Assembly: GCA_964016885.1 (NCBI GenBank) | Contig: OZ024757.1 | Coordinates: 16,368,001 to 16,432,000, forward strand | Origin: Eledone cirrhosa | Taxonomy: Eukaryota | DNA: 64,000 bases | Reading direction: 5' to 3' | Shown: positions 6,259 through 55,452 of the stretch, piece by piece | Numbering within the stretch: position 1 is the stretch's first letter | Layout of the letters: every line of letters starts with the position of its first letter | Notes under the pieces: model-generated | Databases searched by the model: none | Told to the model about the DNA's origin: nothing | The model's input: only the letters and a program-made list of their open reading frames with translations | Translations under genes and position numbers: made by a program

Positions 6259-6343
<85 letters not shown>

Positions 6344-6530
6344 CAAGGTCTAGCAAATAGAGAAAATGTTTTAAAATACATTTTTTAAAATTCTCAGTAC
6401 TTACTATATGTGCCTTTACCGCGGTTTCATGCTCCAGAATAAACGGAAAATCCAAGCGGATTTCCATATATATATATATATATATATGCACACAACACAC
6501 ACGTATATATACACATATATATATATATAT

Positions 6531-6720
6531 AGGAACGAGTAGGATCCCGACGGCTGAGCTCAAGCCGTTTCGACGGCTAATTCTGGACAGAATTAGCCGT
6601 CGAGACGGCTTGAGCTCAACCGTCGAGATCCTACTGGTTCCTATTACCCACTCTACTACCCTAAGTATTGAGTACTTTGGTGCGTTATGGTCCATCTGGT
6701 TCCTTACCACATTTCTTTCG

Positions 6721-6722
<2 letters not shown>
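6531..6722. mobile_element. Family F3 element with GC-rich 112-bp palindrome
   Basis: 6531-6642 is a near-perfect hairpin followed by the F3 tail; (TA)n flanks. Confidence 0.75.
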
Positions 6723-6778
<56 letters not shown>

Positions 6779-8760: not shown

Positions 8761-8924
8761 TATCAAGTAAGTGATGCTGTAGCACTCTATAAACCTAACC
8801 CTAACCTTAACCATCAGATATACTCTACCACGTTTGATATGATAGCAAACTAATGTTCAAACACACTCCGATGAAAAATACACCGAGAACGGAGGCGATA
8901 ATGTCATATATATGTGTTTGTGTG

Positions 8925-9105: not shown

Positions 9106-9263
9106 AACACATATATATGACATTATCGCCTCCGTTCTCGGTGTATTTTTCATCGGAGTGTGTTTGAACATTAGTTTGCTATCATGTCAAACGTGGTAGA
9201 GTATATCTGATGGTTAAGATTAGGGTTAGGTTTATAGAGTGCTACAGCATCACTTACTTGATA
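8761..9263. repeat. About 165-bp inverted repeat with TTAGGG-like repeats
   Basis: 8761-about 8925 is the reverse complement of about 9097-9263. Confidence 0.9.
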
Positions 9264-19344: not shown

Positions 19345-19436
<92 letters not shown>

Positions 19437-19475
19437 GATATTAACAAATGGAAACTATATTTATAAAACCATATT

Positions 19476-19540
19476 TATTTCATTATACATATTTCAAGGA
19501 CACCAAGTTAAATTATGGTGTCCTTTCATCAGATAAAATA
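19476..19540 (-). ncRNA. Type I hammerhead ribozyme (F1)
   Basis: Reverse complement of the HHR at 19688-19752. Confidence 0.85.
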
Positions 19541-19687
19541 TAATATAGAGCAGTTTTATAAATAAATATTAACATACCCTTAAAGAATGCAACCTTAACT
19601 TTTGGAAGCTCCCGGGTAGCTTCCAACAGTAATGGTTGCATTCTTTAAGGGTATGTCAATATTTATTTATAAAACTGCTCTATATTA

Positions 19688-19752
19688 TATTTTATCTGAT
19701 GAAAGGACACCATAATTTAACTTGGTGTCCTTGAAATATGTATAATGAAATA
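19688..19752 (+). ncRNA. Type I hammerhead ribozyme (F1)
   Basis: TATTTTAT-CTGATGA-AAGGACACCA..TGGTGTCCTT-GAAA-TATGTA-TA/ATGAAATA; perfect 10-bp stem II. Confidence 0.88.
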
Positions 19753-20204
19753 AATATGGTTTTATAAATATAGTTTCCATTTGTTAATATCGTATGTTTA
19801 CTCCAATAATTTGTTGAGTACTTTATATCAGTTACAAAAATATTTTCTTGTTGTATCCCAACAATTTAAATAGAACTTCTACATATATATATAATTATAT
19901 ATATAAATGAAAGGTATATAATTATATATATATCGTATATAATTATATATATCGTATATAATTATATATATATATATATATATCGTGTTTGACATGAGAG
20001 GTTCTGAAGGGAAGAGAAACATGGTGATCTCTAATGTCAACGCCGCCATACATGGTTATATATTCGACAGTGAGACGCAGGAGTTACTAAAGAAATACGC
20101 CATTGATATTTTCTCTTTCATTCGCAGCATGATTGCCACCACATCACTGAGGTGTGTGATGATAGAAAGGCTATCTAAGATTGATAGATATATCGTTGTT
20201 GTTG

Positions 20205-26261: not shown

Positions 26262-27248
26262 GAAATTTGGTAACGAAAGGGTTAAGTTATGTTCCAAATA
26301 ACAGCTTAATAATTGTTACTAATTTAGATATAAGGCTTCCAGAATGTACTCCATTAGAAATTTGGTAACGAAAGGGTTAAGTTATGTTCCAAACAACAGC
26401 TTAATAATTGTTACTAATTTAGATATAAGGCTTCCAGAATGTACTCCATTAGAAATTTGGTAACGAAAGGGTTAAGTTATGTTCCAAACAACAGCTTAAT
26501 AATTGTTACTAATTTAGATATAAGGCTTCCAGAATGTACTCCATTAGAAATTTGGTAACGAAAGGGTTAAGTTATGTTCCAAACAACAGCTTAATAATTG
26601 TTACTAATTTAGATATAAGGCTTCCAGAATGTACTCCATTAGAAATTTGGTAACGAAAGGGTTAAGTTATGTTCCAAACAACAGCTTAATAATTGATACT
26701 AATTTAGATATAAGGCTTCCAGAATGTACTACATTAGAAATTTGGTAACGAAAGCGTTAAGTTATGTTCCAAACAACAGCTTAATAATCGTTACTAATTT
26801 AGATATAAGGCTTCCAGAATGTACTCCATTAGAAATTTGGTAACGAAAGGGTTAAGTTATGTTCCAAACAACAGCTTAATAATTGTTACTAATTTAGATA
26901 TAAGGCTTCCAGAATGTACTCCATTAGAAATTTGGTAACGAAAGGGTTAAGTTATGTTCCAAACAACAGCTTAATAATTGATACTAATTTAGATATAAGG
27001 CAACCAGAATGTACTCCATTAGAAATTTGGTAACGAAAGCGTTAAGTTATGTTCCAAACAACAGCTTAATTATCGTTACTAATTTAGATATAAGGCTTCC
27101 AGAATGTACTCCATTAGAAATTTGGTAACGAAAGGGTTAAGTTATGTTCCAAACAACAGCTTAATAATTGTTACTAATTTAGATATAAGGCTTCCAGAAT
27201 GTACTCCATTAGAAATTTGGTAACGAAAGGGTTAAGTTATGTTCCAAA
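26262..27248. repeat. 95-bp satellite, about 10.4 copies
   Basis: GAAATTTGGTAACGAAAGGGTTAAG... recurs at 26262, 26357, 26452 and onward. Confidence 0.97.
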
Positions 27249-30709: not shown

Positions 30710-30752
30710 CCTCCCTTTCTCTCTCTCTATCTATCTATCTATCTCCCTCTCC

Positions 30753-30790
<38 letters not shown>

Positions 30791-31419
30791 CTACCTCCCT
30801 CTCTCTCTATCTATCTATCTATCTATCTCTACCGACCTATCTATATATGTCTCTACATTATTTTAACATAACTAGATTGTTCTCTTCAAAATATTAGTTA
30901 TGTGATTTTCTATGATATTGGCAGTGCATAAAGCTCTGAGGTCTTGCATTTTTAGTCCTAATTCTCCAATTAAGCCGTCATAGATGCATATAATCGTTAT
31001 ATATTGTGTATCGATCTCCTTTGCTATTGTTAGTTTAACACTAATCTATACACCACCAGCTATTTAACAGTGATTTTGACCTGGAAATACAAATCTTTTC
31101 CATGTAAGGATGAAAGGCAAATCTAACTTTGGCGGGTTTGAACTCCGAACGTAAAAGGCCGTAACTCTGTGCTGCGAAGCATAATTAATAACGTATATTA
31201 ATAGTGAGGATGTTTGTGAGCAATGGACTTCATTTTGACATCCGATCTATACGTACGGAGAAAGAGAAGATGTGATGAATGGCATTATATTAGCGAGAGT
31301 GGTCAAGCGGAGAATTATGTTTATCATCCATCCTTGAAGGCAATCAAGGCCGTTGCTAAGATATTTCATAATAATATTTCTTTTACTTCATTGTTATTGT
31401 TGGAACAGACCGGACAATG

Positions 31420-34476: not shown

Positions 34477-35083
34477 GAGTACTCAATGCTTAGGGTAGTA
34501 GAGTGGGTAATAGGAAAAGAGTCACGACCCCGGCGGCTGAGGTCCGGCCGTTTCGACAGCTAGATCTGAAGTTTGACTAATGAATCATCAGTCGACCTTC
34601 AGACACCCGGACAGACGATCGTCCTCGAAGCTCACGAGCCACGTATGATCCCTCAAGGACATAGGCGTAAATTACTCCATCCAATGGAAAGTCATTACTA
34701 AGTTTAAGCCATAGGTAAATGGAAATTCGTCTTGTGGGCTGTGCGTTGAAGAAAGGATCAATATCCTGTGAGGTTTACGCAATAGCGCTTGTCTGAATTC
34801 AAGGAAAGAACTTTTTTCACGTTGTCCAAACGTATGGAAACACTTATTACATAATTACAAAGCTCCATAACTTGGATAATTTATTCCGAGCATCCACAAT
34901 GATATCCCCTACATCGATCTATTATGGGTTTACCTCCCCCAGGAGAAGTGACTGTTTCTACACATGCGAATTCGTACAGTTACGTATCGTTTTCCGTACA
35001 ACTTCATTTATACCGAGCTGATGACCCGAATAAGGTGCAACAATTGTTCTCGGTAATGGTGAATTAACTGTTGTGGAACTACT

Positions 35084-36096: not shown

Positions 36097-36289
36097 TTGA
36101 CATTGCACTCAGTGCTCCTTTGGGAGCCCCTACATGGACACACTAGAAGAGGAAGACCAAGGTTAACATATGTTGATGCCTTAAGGACAGACACTGGTCT
36201 GTTGGAGATGCAGGATATGGCAGCGATAATGAGGGACAGAGACCGCTGGAGAGAACTCGTCCATGGATCTCGGGAATTTTACCCGCCTT

Positions 36290-36291
<2 letters not shown>
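36097..36291 (+). mobile_element. 3' end of RTE-superclade LINE
   Basis: LHSVLLWEPLHGHTRRGRPRLTYVDALRTDTG; same family as 2207-2455; between (TA)n tracts. Confidence 0.85.
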
Positions 36292-36356
<65 letters not shown>

Positions 36357-36362
<6 letters not shown>

Positions 36363-38105
36363 TACTACTCAGAGCTGTCCAACCATAGAGCCACAGAAGG
36401 TCCAGAAGTACTGAAAGTCCCTCCAGCAACCAAAAACGACAACTACCCCATCCTTCGCGAAGAAGTGGAAGCAGCTGTGAAATCGCTCAAGAAGGGGAAG
36501 TCTGCAGAAGTGGATATCTTAGCGGAGCTGGTGCGGGCTGGGGGAGCAGCACTGATAAGCGCCCTACTGACCATCGGCAACAAGATCTGGCAGACAGGGA
36601 AATGACTAACAACATGTCACTTATCATCACCCTCCTCAAGAAAGCAACCTACAATGATGCCAATATTATGGTACCATCAGCCTCATCAGCCATCCAAGGA
36701 AAGTCTGAAGCCGCAAGCAGAAAAAAATTGTCATTGAAGAGCAAGCAGGCTTCCGACCAGGGCGAAGCGCAACAGAGCCGATCTTTCAACCTGAGGAGAA
36801 TATGCGAAAGGTACTTCCAACATCAACAGGACCTCTTCCACGTCTTCGTGGACTTCAAGAAGGCGTTCGGCGTAGTTTGGCACACAGTATTGTAGGCCAC
36901 AATGAAGCTGTACAACATCAATGGTAACTTGATCAGGATGTCCTCAGTGCTGGACTAACCTATAAACACCAACGAGGAAGCCTAATTTTTTAAAATATAT
37001 TTATCATTAGTTTTTATTCACTAAATCAATGAATGTTCTGGAAATTGCTGTCGAAACGTCAAAAGCTCAGCCATCGGGTGCTGACTCTCTACAATTGATC
37101 AGGCTGATACGGAGCCTATATTGCAAAGCCACCAGCGCAGTCTATTTAAACAACAACGTTGGGGACTGGTTCAGCACCACAGCTGGAGTACGACAAGGCT
37201 GTTTGCTCTCTCCAACTCTCTGCAACATCGTCTTAGAGAGAATTATGACAGGCGCACTGGAATACTATGAAAGGACAGACATCATTGGCCGAAAGACTAT
37301 GAACTTGCGTTTTGCCAACAACATAGATAGTCTATCAGGGAAGGAAGAGGGGCTAGCCAACTTAGTGGAACATCTTAACAAGACTCCTACCTCCTATGTC
37401 ATGCAGATCAGTGCAGAAAAGACGAAAGTGATGACCAACAGCACCAACGGCATCAACACTGACATCAGGGTCAACGACGAGAAACTAGAGTGCGTCAGCA
37501 GTTTTTTCAAATACTTGGGGGCACTCATTTCAGATGAAGGGTCTAAACCTCGCTAGATCTGCCCAGACTAACGCAGCACTTCAAAACTTAAAACAACCTG
37601 GAATGACAAAAATTTAGTCCTCAGCTCAAAGATCAGACTGATGCACTCTCTGGTCATGTCCATATTCTTGTATTCCTGTGAGTCTTGGTCAATAACAGCA
37701 GATCTGGAGAGAAGAATACAGGCTACGGAGATGAGATGACTCAGAAATTCCTTGGCATCACCTACAGAGACCGCATATCCAATGAGGAGGTGCGACACAG
37801 AATTTGGCAAGCCATCGGGCCCTCCAAAGACCTGCTGAACATTGTAAAAAAACACAAATTGAGATGGTCCGGGCACGCGACAAGATCTTCAGGGATTGCC
37901 AAGACTTTCCTGCAGGGAACAGTACAAGGAGGAAGGAAGGGAGTCAGACAGAAAAAAATATGGGAGGACAACATTTCGGAATGGACAGGCATGAGGCTGG
38001 GTGCAACCATGTGGAGGACGAAGAGGCGAGAGGAATGGAAGGAGCTGGTTATCAGGTCATCTGTGGCGCCCCAACGGTCCACCAGACTACGGAACAGATG
38101 TGATG
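36357..38105 (+). pseudogene. Decayed RTE-clade LINE reverse transcriptase region and 3' end
   Basis: Motifs EEVEAAVKSLKKGKS, FVDFKKAF, GVRQGCLLSP, NLRFAN, FKYLGA, LRWSGH; several frameshifts and stops; 157-bp insertion. Confidence 0.92.
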
Positions 38106-38213
38106 ATATATATATATATATATTTATATACCAGGTATCACACCATATGAAATATAATTATAATACATATATCACATCATATCAAATAACATATTTCTTG
38201 TATGCCTGGACTC

Positions 38214-38762
38214 GTTCTTCTTCTTCGCCCACTTATTCCTGGGCGGGTCGTTGGGGCAGAGTCTTCAAACACTCCTTCAAGCGGGTCCTGTCAGAAGCAA
38301 CCATTTCCCACTGATACGGCTGAATCGCCAAGTGAAACTAGCCGAGCTCATGGATGTTAGCCCATGATCTTACTCGAGGTCTACTCCTGGGTCTCCTACT
38401 GGTTAGTTTTTTCCCATAAAATCCGTATTCAGCGATTCTTTCCTGCGACATTTTAACCACATGTCCACAATATCGGAGCTGTGATGTCTCAATTCGGAGA
38501 AGTAGCGGCTCAATCTGGAGAAACTCTCTGATCTCCGAGCTACGCACTCTATCGAGTAACGCGTTACTCCAAAGACTCTTGGAAGGAATCCCATTTCGGC
38601 CGCATGTATTCGTGATCGTATTATTTCAGTCATTACCCAAGATTCCTGACCATAGGTAAATGTTGGCACGAATACCGAATTGAAGATAGCGAGTTTGGCG
38701 TTTACACCTACCTCCCTTCTTCTGAGTACCGAATGTTGAATCTGGGGCATTAGTGCACCAGC
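38214..38762 (-). pseudogene. Decayed RTE (Rex3/Expander-like) LINE 3' fragment
   Basis: KLAIFNSVFVPTFTYGQESWVMTE..RIHAAEMGFL, IEPLLLRIETSQLRYCGHV; (GAA)n tail. Confidence 0.88.
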
Positions 38763-43732: not shown

Positions 43733-44012
43733 CAATGATATTAAATAAATGGAAACTATATTTATAAAACCATATTTATTCTATTATATATATTTCAAGG
43801 GTACCAAAAACTTTGGTACGCTTTCATCAGATAAAATACAAAGAGTATTTTATAAATTTTGACATAGCCAAGGAAACTATACCTTATCAGTTGAATTTTT
43901 CTTGGTAGTTTAATATCATTGAATATTTACTCCAGAAAACTGTCGAGTGCTCTTAATCAGTTATAAACATTGATATTTGTTGTATTTCCAACAAATTAAA
44001 TATCCCTTCTAC
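43733..44012. mobile_element. F1 element copy 4 (inverted HHR segment plus forward tail)
   Basis: 43737-43860 resembles 1-135; 43909-44012 resembles 19783-19882; 13-bp inverted overlap. Confidence 0.8.
43777..43838 (-). ncRNA. Type I hammerhead ribozyme (F1 subfamily)
   Basis: TATTTTAT-CTGATGA-AAGCGTACCAAA..TTTGGTACCCTT-GAAA-TATATA-TA/ATAGAATA. Confidence 0.85.
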
Positions 44013-44949
44013 TTATATATATATATATATATATTTATTGAACTAAACAACCCTATCTCGGTACAGATTTCAGTGTAAATGAAATGGCTTGGAAATTAAT
44101 TATCTCCCCAGCTAGAAATCTTCGCACTCGAGAATAAAGCATTAAGCACTTTTTATCCTCTCGTTATATTTTATGATTTTCGACAATAATGCAACGTAAT
44201 ATAAATAGCAACAATAGAGGAAATTTTCAGTTAACTGTTAAATATGAAGTATTTGATCCTATACATTTGAAATATGTTTAATGTAAACTGTAGTGTAGAT
44301 ATAAAATGTCCTAAATAAACCTGTACGAACATTCTATGAGATTCCATTATAATTTATACTATTTTTATACACATATAGCCTCTATTCCATATAATAATAC
44401 ACTGGATTATTTTAGGTGCAAAGCCTAAGTATATATACAATCATATATATCAATGTATATATTGTATATTTATATATATTTGTGTATGTTCTTCTGCTAT
44501 AATTATTTAATTTATTTCATGTTCTGCTATAATTATTTAATTTATTTCATGCCAATTGAAGGAGCTACTTTATAACAAGGTACGAGGGTATTATTATTCT
44601 TTCATTTGTGTGTAAACACCAACTATGTATATATATCTATGTATGTGTGTGTATGTGTGTGTGTGTATGTGTGTGTGTGTGTGTGTGCGTGTGTGTGTGT
44701 GTGTGCGTGCGTGTGTATGGATATATGTGTATATATATATATATTTATATATGTCTGTATATCTGTACGTACTTACGTACGTATGTATGTATTTATGTAG
44801 GTGTGTATGTATCTATGTATATACGTATGTATGTATGTATGTATGAACGAATGAATGTGTGTGTGTGGGTGTGTGGGTGGGTGTGTGTGTGTGATTGTGT
44901 GATTGTGTGCAGGTATGAGTGTCATTGCATGTGTGGATCTGTGTTTTGC

Positions 44950-45330
44950 GTGGAAGAGAACACTTAACATTGAAAAGGATGGTCAGGAAAAGGGACTGTT
45001 CTGAACTGCCTGCTATTGAGCAATATCTGGTTTGCCAGCACTGTAGTCGAGTCTGCCTGAGCAAAGCTGGTTTGATAAGGTACGAACAAAGTCATATGGG
45101 TAGACCTCATGTAGCTTATGATCTGAAAAGGTGTAAGGAATGTGCAAGCATGGGAGTTCTTAAAAAACAAAGGAGAACACACTGTCAGAACCAAGAGCCT
45201 ACATCTGCCATGTCTGTGCCAGAGGGTGCAAGTCTTTGGCTAGTTTAAAGAGCCACGTTCGTGCCTCACATTTTTTAGCATGTTATCAGGCGATGGCAAT
45301 ACTCGAACACGAGTTTGCGGCCATCATGTA
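44950..45330 (+). mobile_element. LINE 3' end with C2H2-like zinc fingers (RTE/BovB-like)
   Basis: LVCQHCSRVCLSKAGLIRYEQSH; tail ACTCGAACACGAGT..GCCATCATGTAT. Confidence 0.6.
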
Positions 45331-45339
45331 TAATTGTCA

Positions 45340-46015
45340 CAGGTGTAGTGTTTGTACCAGAGTTTTCAAGTCGCTGGCTGGACTAAAAAGTCCCACTCGT
45401 TCAGCGCATTGGTAGGGGTTCTCCTACATGGATATAAAGTAGTGGCGGTACTCGAAATCGAGTTGGCAGCCACCATGTATGCATGTATATATGTATGTAT
45501 GCATATACGCATGCATGTATGTATGCATGTATGTATGTATGTTTGTCTATATGTATGCATTCATCTATTTATATATGTATGCATGTATGTGTGTATGTTT
45601 GCTTATATGTAAATATGCATTTACATATGTATATATATATGTATGTATATATATATGTATGTACGTGTATATGTTTGTATGTATGTATCTGTATACTTGT
45701 AAAAAGTCACACTCGTTCAGCGCATTGGTAGGGGTTCTCCAACATGGATATAGAGTAGTGGGCGTATTGGAAATCGAGTTGGCAGCCACCATGTATGCAT
45801 GTATATATGTATGTATGCATATATGCATGCATGTATGTATGCATGTATGTATGTATGTTTGTCTATATGTATGCATTCATCTATTTATATATGTATGCAT
45901 GTATGTACTCATGTATGTGTGTATGTTTGCTTATATGTATATATGCATTTACATATGTATATATATATGTATGTACGTGTATATGTTTGTATGTATGTAT
46001 CTGTATACTTGTACC
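45340..46015 (+). repeat. Related LINE tail with (ATGT)n, tandemly duplicated (period about 316 bp)
   Basis: About 45384-45699 is repeated at about 45700-46015. Confidence 0.85.
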
Positions 46016-47971: not shown

Positions 47972-48099
47972 TAAATCATGTCTATAGAATTATTAGTTAA
48001 ATAAAATATATACCATTTCCTCTGCCAATCGGCATAATTAACCATATAAAAAGGCTATGGCACCGGTTGCAACATATATAACTTTATTTATATGTAAAC

Positions 48100-48161
<62 letters not shown>

Positions 48162-48228
48162 AAGGTTTAGCAAATAATGAAAAAGTTTCAAAATAAATTT
48201 TAAAAAATTGACTTTACCTACTATAGTT

Positions 48229-48311
48229 ACCTTTACCGATCGGTTTCGAATCCCAAAAATAAACGGAGACCATACGGCCTTCGTTGCAAAGAAAGATTCT
48301 CGTCAGAAGGT
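48229..48311 (-). ncRNA. Type I hammerhead ribozyme, array copy 1
   Basis: ACCTT-CTGACGA-GAATCTT..GGGATTC-GAAA-CCGATCGG-TA/AAGGT; intact core. Confidence 0.92.
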
Positions 48312-48713
48312 TCTTTTCATTCGAAGAATATAAAATTCTTGAATTTAAATTACGAACTAGCGCTATCCAAAACTGTTCCTGAGATGAGAGTGAATGAAGT
48401 GGAATCAATTTTTTCAAGGGCCGAAGTAAAGATAGAGGCAGAGGGAGGTAGGTCAAACCGGCCGCAACTATCACTAGCAGCAGTCGGAACGACCCAATTT
48501 GTCTCTCAACAATAGAGGAGAGTAGTAATAATAGGATATGTGTTCCTTCACGCACTAGGCGCTAAGGGACGCATGTATTGTCCAACCAAATGCCAATGTG
48601 GTTCAATGGCAGGTTAATAAATTAACGAGCCAGAACATATATAAACAAGGTTTAGCAAATAATGAAAAAGTTTCAAAATAAATTTTAAAAAATTGACTTT
48701 ACCTACTATAGTT

Positions 48714-48796
48714 ACCTTTACCGATCGGTTTCGAATCCCAAAAATAAACGGAGACCATACGGCCTTCGTTGCAAAGAAAGATTCTCGTCAGAAGGT
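48714..48796 (-). ncRNA. Type I hammerhead ribozyme, array copy 2
   Basis: Identical to copy 1, offset +485. Confidence 0.92.
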
Positions 48797-49198
48797 TCTT
48801 TTCATTCGAAGAATATAAAATTCTTGAATTTAAATTACGAACTAGCGCTATCCAAAACTGTTCCTGAGATGAGAGTGAATGAAGTGGAATCAATTTTTTC
48901 AAGGGCCGAAGTAAAGATAGAGGCAGAGGGAGGTAGGTCAAACCGGCCGCAACTATCACTAGCAGCAGTCGGAACGACCCAATTTGTCTCTCAACAATAG
49001 AGGAGAGTAGTAATAATAGGATATGTGTTCCTTCACGCACAAGGCGCTAAGGGACGCATGTATTGTCCAACCAAATGCCAATGTGGTTCAATGGCAGGTT
49101 AATAAATTAACGAGCCAGAACATATATAAACAAGGTTTAGCAAATAATGAAAAAGTTTCAAAATAAATTTTAAAAAATTGACTTTACCTACTATAGTT

Positions 49199-49281
49199 AC
49201 CTTTACCGATCGGTTTCGAATCCCAAAAATAAACGGAGACCATACGGCCTTCGTTGCAAAGAAAGATTCTCGTCAGAAGGT
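49199..49281 (-). ncRNA. Type I hammerhead ribozyme, array copy 3
   Basis: Identical, offset +970. Confidence 0.92.
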
Positions 49282-49683
49282 TCTTTTCATTCGAAGAATA
49301 TAAAATTCTTGAATTTAAATTACGAACTAGCGCTATCCAAAACTGTTCCTGAGATGAGAGTGAATGAAGTGGAATCAATTTTTTCAAGGGCCGAAGTAAA
49401 GATAGAGGCAGAGGGAGGTAGGTCAAACCGGCCGCAACTATCACTAGCAGCAGTCGGAACGACCCAATTTGTCTCTCAACAATAGAGGAGAGTAGTAATA
49501 ATAGGATATGTGTTCCTTCACGCACTAGGCGCTAAGGGACGCATGTATTGTCCAACCAAATGCCAATGTGGTTCAATGGCAGGTTAATAAATTAACGAGC
49601 CAGAACATATATAAACAAGGTTTAGCAAATAATGAAAAAGTTTCAAAATAAATTTTAAAAAATTGACTTTACCTACTATAGTT

Positions 49684-49766
49684 ACCTTTACCGATCGGTT
49701 TCGAATCCCAAAAATAAACGGAGACCATACGGCCTTCGTTGCAAAGAAAGATTCTCGTCAGAAGGT
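49684..49766 (-). ncRNA. Type I hammerhead ribozyme, array copy 4
   Basis: Identical, offset +1455. Confidence 0.92.
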
Positions 49767-49876
49767 TCTTTTCATTCGAAGAATATAAAATTCTTGAATT
49801 TAAATTACGAACTAGCGCTATCCAAAACTGTTCCTGAGATGAGAGTGAATGAAGTGGAATCAATTTTTTCAAGGGC

Positions 49877-49916
<40 letters not shown>

Positions 49917-55047: not shown

Positions 55048-55054
<7 letters not shown>

Positions 55055-55399
55055 AAGTTAAATAAAAGTCAAATGATTAAAATTTGACTCCAGTTCCTCA
55101 GTAAATTAACAACCCAACAAGGAACTGGGCATATCAGAGTATTGACAATATTATACACCTAAACAACATATGTACTTGTCTATACCATACTAATTCAAAC
55201 TGCCTGAAGAGGTCACAGCCAAAGATGGCTGTCACTGAAATATATATAGCAGTAATAAACGAAGCTAAATTTTAATCATTTGACTTTTATTTAACTTTAT
55301 TTTACACTACTCCGGAGTAACCAAACCAACCTGCGCACTTCGTCGAGTGCTCCAGCCTGCATACTGAGGTGTTGGTATACAACCAACATAAACTCAAAA

Positions 55400-55400
<1 letters not shown>
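55048..55400 (+). mobile_element. HHR-bearing element with 38-bp inverted terminal duplication
   Basis: 55048-55085 is the reverse complement of 55267-55304; HHR lies inside. Confidence 0.8.
55199..55253 (+). ncRNA. Type I hammerhead ribozyme
   Basis: ACTGC-CTGAAGA-GGTCACAGCCA-AAGA-TGGCTGTCACT-GAAA-TATATA-TA/GCAGT. Confidence 0.9.

Positions 55401-55452
<52 letters not shown>

Follow-up and report, generated by a model that had tools for sequence, protein, structure and literature searches.

Animal non-LTR retrozymes were defined in a study which also proposed that their RNA circles are copied into tandem cDNA, with Penelope-like elements (PLEs) as candidate providers of the enzyme (PMC7229834; here and below, published systems are described from the accessible portions of the sources cited). 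Circular templates had already been proposed in 2014 for PLE copies of more than one unit (Cervera and de la Pena, PMC4209133). Retrozymes were recently linked to the pLTRs of PLEs, and their local amplification was suggested (Li, Clavereau and Pollet 2026, 10.64898/2026.07.22.740005). In the same preprint, one of nine Xenopus dimers tested was found to cleave, which calls for caution with hammerheads assigned by motif only. The return of retrozymes to DNA by PLE copying of circular RNA is proposed in these sources but not demonstrated (PMC7229834, PMC4209133, 10.64898/2026.07.22.740005).

PLEs with type I hammerheads insert into (TA)n, as described for Naiad, Hydra and Neptune (cited therein) by Craig et al. 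2021 (PMC8557442). Their copies show 5' truncation, inverted arms in many though not all cases, tails of 30-40 bp and partial tandems (PMC8557442). The sole PLE tested in vitro for initiation is that of the anole, Poseidon PAc (Frangieh et al. 2024, PMC11167929). PAc nicks AT-rich DNA. Its two start sites are internal, lie downstream of the hammerhead and are non-homologous to the target, and unprocessed RNA serves as the template (PMC11167929).

The window, by which we mean the whole 64-kb stretch of DNA analysed, contains a young tandem array inside a TA microsatellite. The array is a further member of the animal non-LTR retrozymes, with cleavage and circles as predictions, and it bears the insertion marks of PLEs. 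Its features are as follows.

48103 to 48158, no strand: (TA)n arm on the 3' side of the element in RNA sense; the 7 letters that close it, at 48152-48158, are the unit's own ATATATA patch
48159 to 48643, minus strand: full unit nearest the 3' side, 485 bp; the 3' end fixed in the family is base 48159
48229 to 48311, minus strand: type I hammerhead motif, predicted cut 48234/48233
48536 to 48539, minus strand: second AT patch, 4 nt, immediately 3' of a hairpin; candidate site of a second ("tail") end, from one contig
48556, plus strand: variable site, with T at 48556 and 49526 and A, the family state, at 49041
48637 to 48643, 49122 to 49128 and 49607 to 49613, minus strand: internal UAUAUAU patches, predicted unpaired; other copies join (AT)n here
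48644 to 49128, minus strand: middle full unit, with the family-majority base at 49041
48714 to 48796, minus strand: type I hammerhead motif, predicted cut 48719/48718; read variants lie in helix II
49129 to 49613, minus strand: third full unit
49199 to 49281, minus strand: type I hammerhead motif, predicted cut 49204/49203
49614 to 49878, minus strand: 5'-truncated unit, 265 bp, which retains the whole hammerhead motif
49684 to 49766, minus strand: type I hammerhead motif, predicted cut 49689/49688
49879 to 49909, no strand: (TA)n arm at the 5' truncation

The array spans 48152-49879 and consists of 3.56 near-identical, non-coding copies with a period of 485 bp, computed on the window sequence (a period of 484 was tried, and 485 fits instead). 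The units have a GC content of 0.384 and are 99.8-100% identical to each other, with one variable position in the whole array, which reads T at 48556, A at 49041 and T at 49526 (T-A-T). The initial annotation had described a short ATATATA at every internal junction, a 3' end that falls on this motif and merges into (TA)n, and a truncated 5'-most unit after which (TA)n resumes, and the locus bears out each of these. GAAC-ATATATA-AACAAGG occurs at 3/3 internal junctions (48633, 49118 and 49603). The last element base on the minus strand is 48159, 75 nt past the predicted cut, and it joins the (TA)n of 48103-48158 via 7 shared letters. The 5' truncation lies at 49878/49879, 190 nt upstream of the first predicted cut, shares 1 letter with (TA)n, and gives way to (TA)n at 49879-49909. 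The sequence is seamless across each of the four cut sites. The 75-nt offset rules out the ribozyme cut site as the 3' end, in agreement with the initial annotation. No inverted arm was found in the 48152-49879 insertion, and no target-site duplication was seen beyond the (TA)n on both flanks.

A minus-strand type I hammerhead motif is present in 4/4 array units, with the core CUGACGA at 48306, 48791, 49276 and 49761. Helix I is formed by ACCUU/AAGGU, and helix II comprises 7 bp closed by G-C, with a 52-nt insert, followed by GAAA. The palindromic helix III has three pairs and a GAUC loop, and cleavage is predicted directly after GUA. The descriptor matched 6/5000 shuffled units. Rfam gave 0 matches on the window at the gathering score, and no hammerhead at E values up to 10. 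In folding predictions, the minimum-energy structure is more stable than the active hammerhead fold, by 2.1 kcal/mol for the local sequence and by 5.9 for the circular form. Among the 40 of 142 variable places listed, two lie in helix II, namely 48738 C>T in 126/427 reads and 48778 A>G in 102/431 reads of sequencing run X13, and both convert a U-G wobble to a Watson-Crick pair (U-A and C-G). These pair-keeping variants, together with a palindromic helix III in a diverged relative at 6341, were counted in favour of a ribozyme, and we regard the unit hammerhead as a predicted self-cutting RNA. A coding remnant in the unit was ruled out on Pfam alone: six unit frames (42-115 aa) gave no match at E 0.05.

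Like the animal non-LTR retrozymes, the array consists of head-to-tail non-coding units with one type I hammerhead each, belongs to a dispersed set and is of 38% GC; its helix III, with two further pairs and a tetraloop, resembles that of invertebrates. The 485-bp unit is longer than the 150-450 bp given in the 2020 paper but falls within the 51-972 bp of the 2026 preprint. The 52-nt insert in helix II, missed by Rfam, is a further difference, and the (TA)n targeting and fixed ends of the array are undescribed in the accessible portions of the retrozyme papers. With the PLE EN+ clades the array shares a type I hammerhead near the 3' end, (TA)n insertion without a readable duplication, 5' truncation, partial tandems and a fixed end with an optional tail (PMC8557442, PMC4209133). 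Unlike them, it has neither an RT or GIY-YIG ORF nor an inverted arm, and its candidate tail measures about 100 nt rather than 30-40 nt. Its start lies downstream of the hammerhead, as in anole PAc (in PAc at 111-118 nt of the ORF, where the cut is at 26 nt; in the array 75 nt past the cut), and in both the template is uncut and the target AT-rich. PAc, however, starts in an AC-rich stem-loop without target homology, whereas the array matches its target over 7 nt. MRC1 and other non-autonomous Chlamys PLEs differ from the array in being green-algal, and Chlamys elements mostly lack hammerheads and prefer (CA)n (PMC8557442).

Since the retrozyme class, the circle model and the targeting of (TA)n by PLEs have all been published, the locus has its value as a good test case and not as a new system. 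From the array ends, a start base, a target and a template length can be read, all of them open to direct testing. They also offer a clean contrast, in that the PLE studied in vitro needs no homology and the array family matches its target over 7 nt. We found no paper that maps retrozyme array ends in (TA)n in the accessible literature outside subscription journals and supplements; Fig. S9 of PMC7229834 and Figs S1-S2 of PMC11167929 are supplements that possibly bear on this point.

The array unit belongs to a dispersed, high-copy, multi-locus family. Family matches were obtained in 15 sequencing runs, the four best and three raw-read runs coming from one organism (A). No RNA dataset is among the 15, and they carry no bearing on expression. 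Family counts rest on the 4/15 runs mapped to one unit (X1, X2, X13 and X5), with the small-share runs X6-X12 outside; X5, from organism B, gave a single contig at depth 2 and was left out of the evidence. On one unit, matches amounted to 27 X1 contigs, 944 X2 contigs and 1741 X13 reads, and 142 places were variable across the unit in the mapped runs (40 listed). Head-to-tail joints of period 485 occur in X1 and X2. Given this dispersal in the reads and the relative in the window, a tandem duplication at a single locus, named in the initial annotation as the finding that would count against it, is contradicted. Pattern scans of metagenome contigs and viral contigs gave no family match.

The family state at the variable site is A, which accounts for all of the X1 depth, 15,979/16,036 of the X2 depth and 285/288 X13 reads; T makes up 58/16,036 of the X2 depth and at most 3/288 X13 reads. 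X1 record 1 is a sister copy in the A form, exact over 282 nt. No shared RNA-editing marks were found over 48330-48574, where an X1 contig differs from the 3'-most unit at 1 place.

The reads also locate the ends of other copies. Immediately before 48637, at a local depth of about 316, 102 X13 reads pass into (AT)n, and this joint is not at an AATT library-end word; other copies therefore end exactly at the patch, while many read through. A T>A variant at 48638 disrupts the patch in 51/206 X13 reads. The fixed 3' end at the patch that the initial annotation anticipated is thus found in these reads, but it is not the sole end, since read depth does not drop past ATATATA and the junction with (AT)n in one X1 contig lies before 48539, which is 98-104 nt beyond the first end. 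On the basis of that contig, a second start about 100 nt further on is a candidate that would give the array family a PLE "tail". In a diverged subfamily, represented by 99 X13 reads with a loose end before 48565, inspection by eye shows a compensated version of the hairpin with a longer AT patch after it. The loose-end evidence comprises the 14 of 133 loose ends listed, and given that share some 3' ends across the family may be random. Of the seven X13 pile-ups listed, six (48407, 48499, 48620, 48623, 48684 and 48691) coincide with AATT words and were discounted as library ends. At 48575, 44 X13 molecules start without an AATT word, and the X2 depth climbs steeply over 48568-48600; this pile-up may be another end or a subfamily boundary.

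The window itself holds one diverged copy of the family.

6341 to 6466, minus strand: diverged member of the family (77% over 110 nt), truncated on its 5' side within helix II, where it meets (TA)n

The 3' end of this relative lies 75 nt past its cut, in the same register as that of the array, and is joined to (CT)n(TA)n; its helix III is shorter and still palindromic. Both window copies of the family (2/2, a small sample) are 5'-truncated into (TA)n at differing positions, as the initial annotation had anticipated. Its expectation of (TA)n flanks agrees with the array and with the (AT)n of the 102 reads but not with the 3' end of the 6341 relative, which joins (CT)n. Matches at 30739-30812 were discarded as CT-repeat noise.

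Unrelated hammerhead elements occur in the same window. A second type I hammerhead family is found at 19436-19882, 43733-44013, 1-383 and 799-923, with a helix II that varies yet pairs, and a third hammerhead element at 55050-55399 carries a 36-nt inverted arm. The inverted arms of these two unrelated families expose read-through sequence and so make a test of pairing possible. In the second family, the short end lies about 48-52 nt past the cut and the long end 90-92 nt further, in (TA)n. In the third element, the corresponding distances are 54 nt for the short end and a further 97 nt for the long end, which adjoins (CT)n(TA)n. The long ends are thus 90, 92 and 97 nt beyond the short ends, all in microsatellites, and the three short ends share 3, 0 and 2 letters with (TA)n. 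By eye, two short ends of the second family fall on the same homologous G, and only one of them continues with TA. By analogy, this two-end layout can be read as the two-start "tail" geometry of PLEs. At two of the eight compound tracts listed (6260-6341 and 55400-55442), a hammerhead element runs out, in RNA sense, into (CT)n and then (TA)n; the (CT)n may represent target, tail or later slippage.

These ends bear on what sets the start of copying. The initial annotation had attributed the 3' end to the pairing of an AT patch with a nicked (TA)n target. This is not supported: the 6341 relative ends in the same register into (CT)n, and the short ends of the other families overlap (TA)n by 3, 0 and 2 nt. 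From these observations and the precedent of the anole PLE, we infer that the start is set by position or structure; it appears to be fixed by position relative to the ribozyme or by RNA structure, not by pairing. The UAUAUAU patch is predicted to be unpaired in the circular monomer (0.86-0.95 vs a mean of 0.42) and probably helps priming on (TA)n. It could also have arisen secondarily, from target letters incorporated where the end is fixed. An overlap of at least 7 nt with (TA)n arises at 8/970 combinations of end position and phase (0.8%), and because it is that unlikely by chance, pairing may carry more weight than our best explanation allows. For comparison, 140/2000 shuffled units hold such a patch of at least 7 nt, and perfect (TA)n of at least 10 nt makes up 10% of the 64-kb window.

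As for the template, the seamless copying across four predicted cut sites makes a single linear cut-to-cut monomer impossible. The initial annotation had suggested a circular or uncut multimeric template copied about 3.5 times; the length stands at 3.56 copies and an uncut multimer fits T-A-T, but a plain monomer circle is disfavoured. By computation, one monomer circle with random errors would yield T-A-T at about 4-6e-4, while an uncut multimer or dimer drawn from mixed units would give it directly. This makes an uncut multimer a likelier template than a plain circle of one unit. T-A-T would also result if a single circle carried a miscoding base, if the middle unit had been converted (possible because the exact A-form copy exists over 282 nt) or from a polishing or assembly error, and a single site would not separate these.

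We propose, with a probability of roughly 0.68, that the array is an animal non-LTR retrozyme inserted in one event by a borrowed Penelope-type endonuclease/RT, with an internal start and an uncut template. The array geometry, the motif in each unit, the dispersed family, the common 3' end, the (TA)n on both sides and the differing 5' truncations are seen directly; target-primed reverse transcription, the PLE enzyme, the single event and the form of the template are the likely reading of them. A source array would be transcribed into RNA, which a PLE RT-GIY-YIG protein would bind in trans. The borrowed enzyme would nick the (TA)n target, and reverse transcription would start at the family-fixed internal site 75 nt past a predicted hammerhead cut. 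Synthesis of about 1.72 kb across four uncut hammerhead sites would stop early and be followed by joining to the other (TA)n arm. The two unrelated window families with inverted arms and with short and long ends in microsatellites, the 6341 relative ending 75 nt past its cut, the 102 X13 reads at the end point of the array and the X1 contig ending 98-104 nt past it favour this route. Counting against it are the lack of an inverted arm in the array insertion, the failure of Rfam to match the hammerhead, an active fold that is not the predicted minimum-energy fold, a second end known from one contig, and T-A-T being a single site with three other explanations. A further point against it is that no autonomous partner with an RT and GIY-YIG ORF was found among 146 window frames, which also gave no match to a GIY-YIG domain. 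These frames comprise 142 of the 148 longest of 167 filtered frames (six repeat-unit duplicates were dropped) and 4 short unit frames. The sole RT match among them is RVT_1 (5e-12) at 37011-37553 on the plus strand; it lies in a decayed LINE-like retrotransposon at 36177-38314, and we take the remnant to be LINE-like from its motif features.

A competing account, which we consider doubtful, holds that pairing of nicked (TA)n with UAUAUAU sets the start and that one monomer circle was copied 3.56 times, with a damaged or modified U misread in 2/3 passes. The 7-nt overlap, at 0.8% by chance, the predicted unpaired state of the patch in the circle and the four seamless cut-site junctions speak for it. 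So do the rarity of T in the family and the position of the second end, also on an AT patch, where the diverged subfamily (99 reads) has a longer one. Circular templates have moreover been proposed in the accessible parts of PMC4209133 and PMC7229834. Yet the 6341 relative joins (CT)n in the same register and the other families overlap by 3, 0 and 2 nt, the anole PLE needs no homology and copies unprocessed RNA (PMC11167929), and T-A-T arising by random error at about 4-6e-4 calls for an extra assumption. The corresponding formulation, in which a 485-nt circle was copied by a telomerase-related Penelope enzyme and T-A-T would be a genomic fossil of rolling-circle target-primed reverse transcription, we hold to be doubtful to the same degree. 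Still less probable is a PLE-type copy of about 1.56 units that later grew locally by unequal exchange or conversion. Such growth has been proposed for retrozyme arrays (bioRxiv 10.64898/2026.07.22.740005), partial tandems are the usual PLE product (PMC8557442), near-identity of the units fits recent duplication, and the exact A-form sister copy (282 nt) makes middle-unit conversion possible. Expansion of a single unit, however, yields no T-A-T without a further event, and the family in general shows head-to-tail joints and reads that continue beyond the patch.

Faulty assembly or polishing of a high-copy repeat is a very unlikely source of the copy number or of T-A-T. The family is indeed very abundant and its units in the array are 99.8-100% identical, but the array junctions are present in independent reads, a low-depth non-A letter exists at the variable site, and an artefact would affect only the unit number and one site, leaving the ends untouched. 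Least credible of all is insertion by another enzyme, for instance a LINE such as the one represented by the 37011 remnant, or template jumping that joined cut-to-cut monomers. LINEs that target microsatellites and end-to-end template jumping are known, a LINE-like RT remnant is present in the window (RVT_1, 5e-12) and jumping would mix T and A units. Against this stand the lack of a LINE-type tail or target duplication, the internal start with four seamless cut-site junctions, and the low likelihood of drawing the rare T form twice from a pool of about 99% A.

Other repeats were observed in the window. A palindromic repeat family (6531-6723, 546-627 and 34478-34568) has a common terminal motif joined to (TA)n, and the type I hammerhead descriptor gave no match on these copies. 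An inverted pair of 98% identity (8766-8898 and 9126-9258) flanks (TA)n together with a fragment resembling the left flank of the array (47974-48023). A frame with a C2H2 zinc-finger match lies at 45164-45412 on the plus strand (E 9e-6, just below the curated cut-off), and a 95-bp tandem array at 26262-27248 comprises 10.4 copies with 97% matches.
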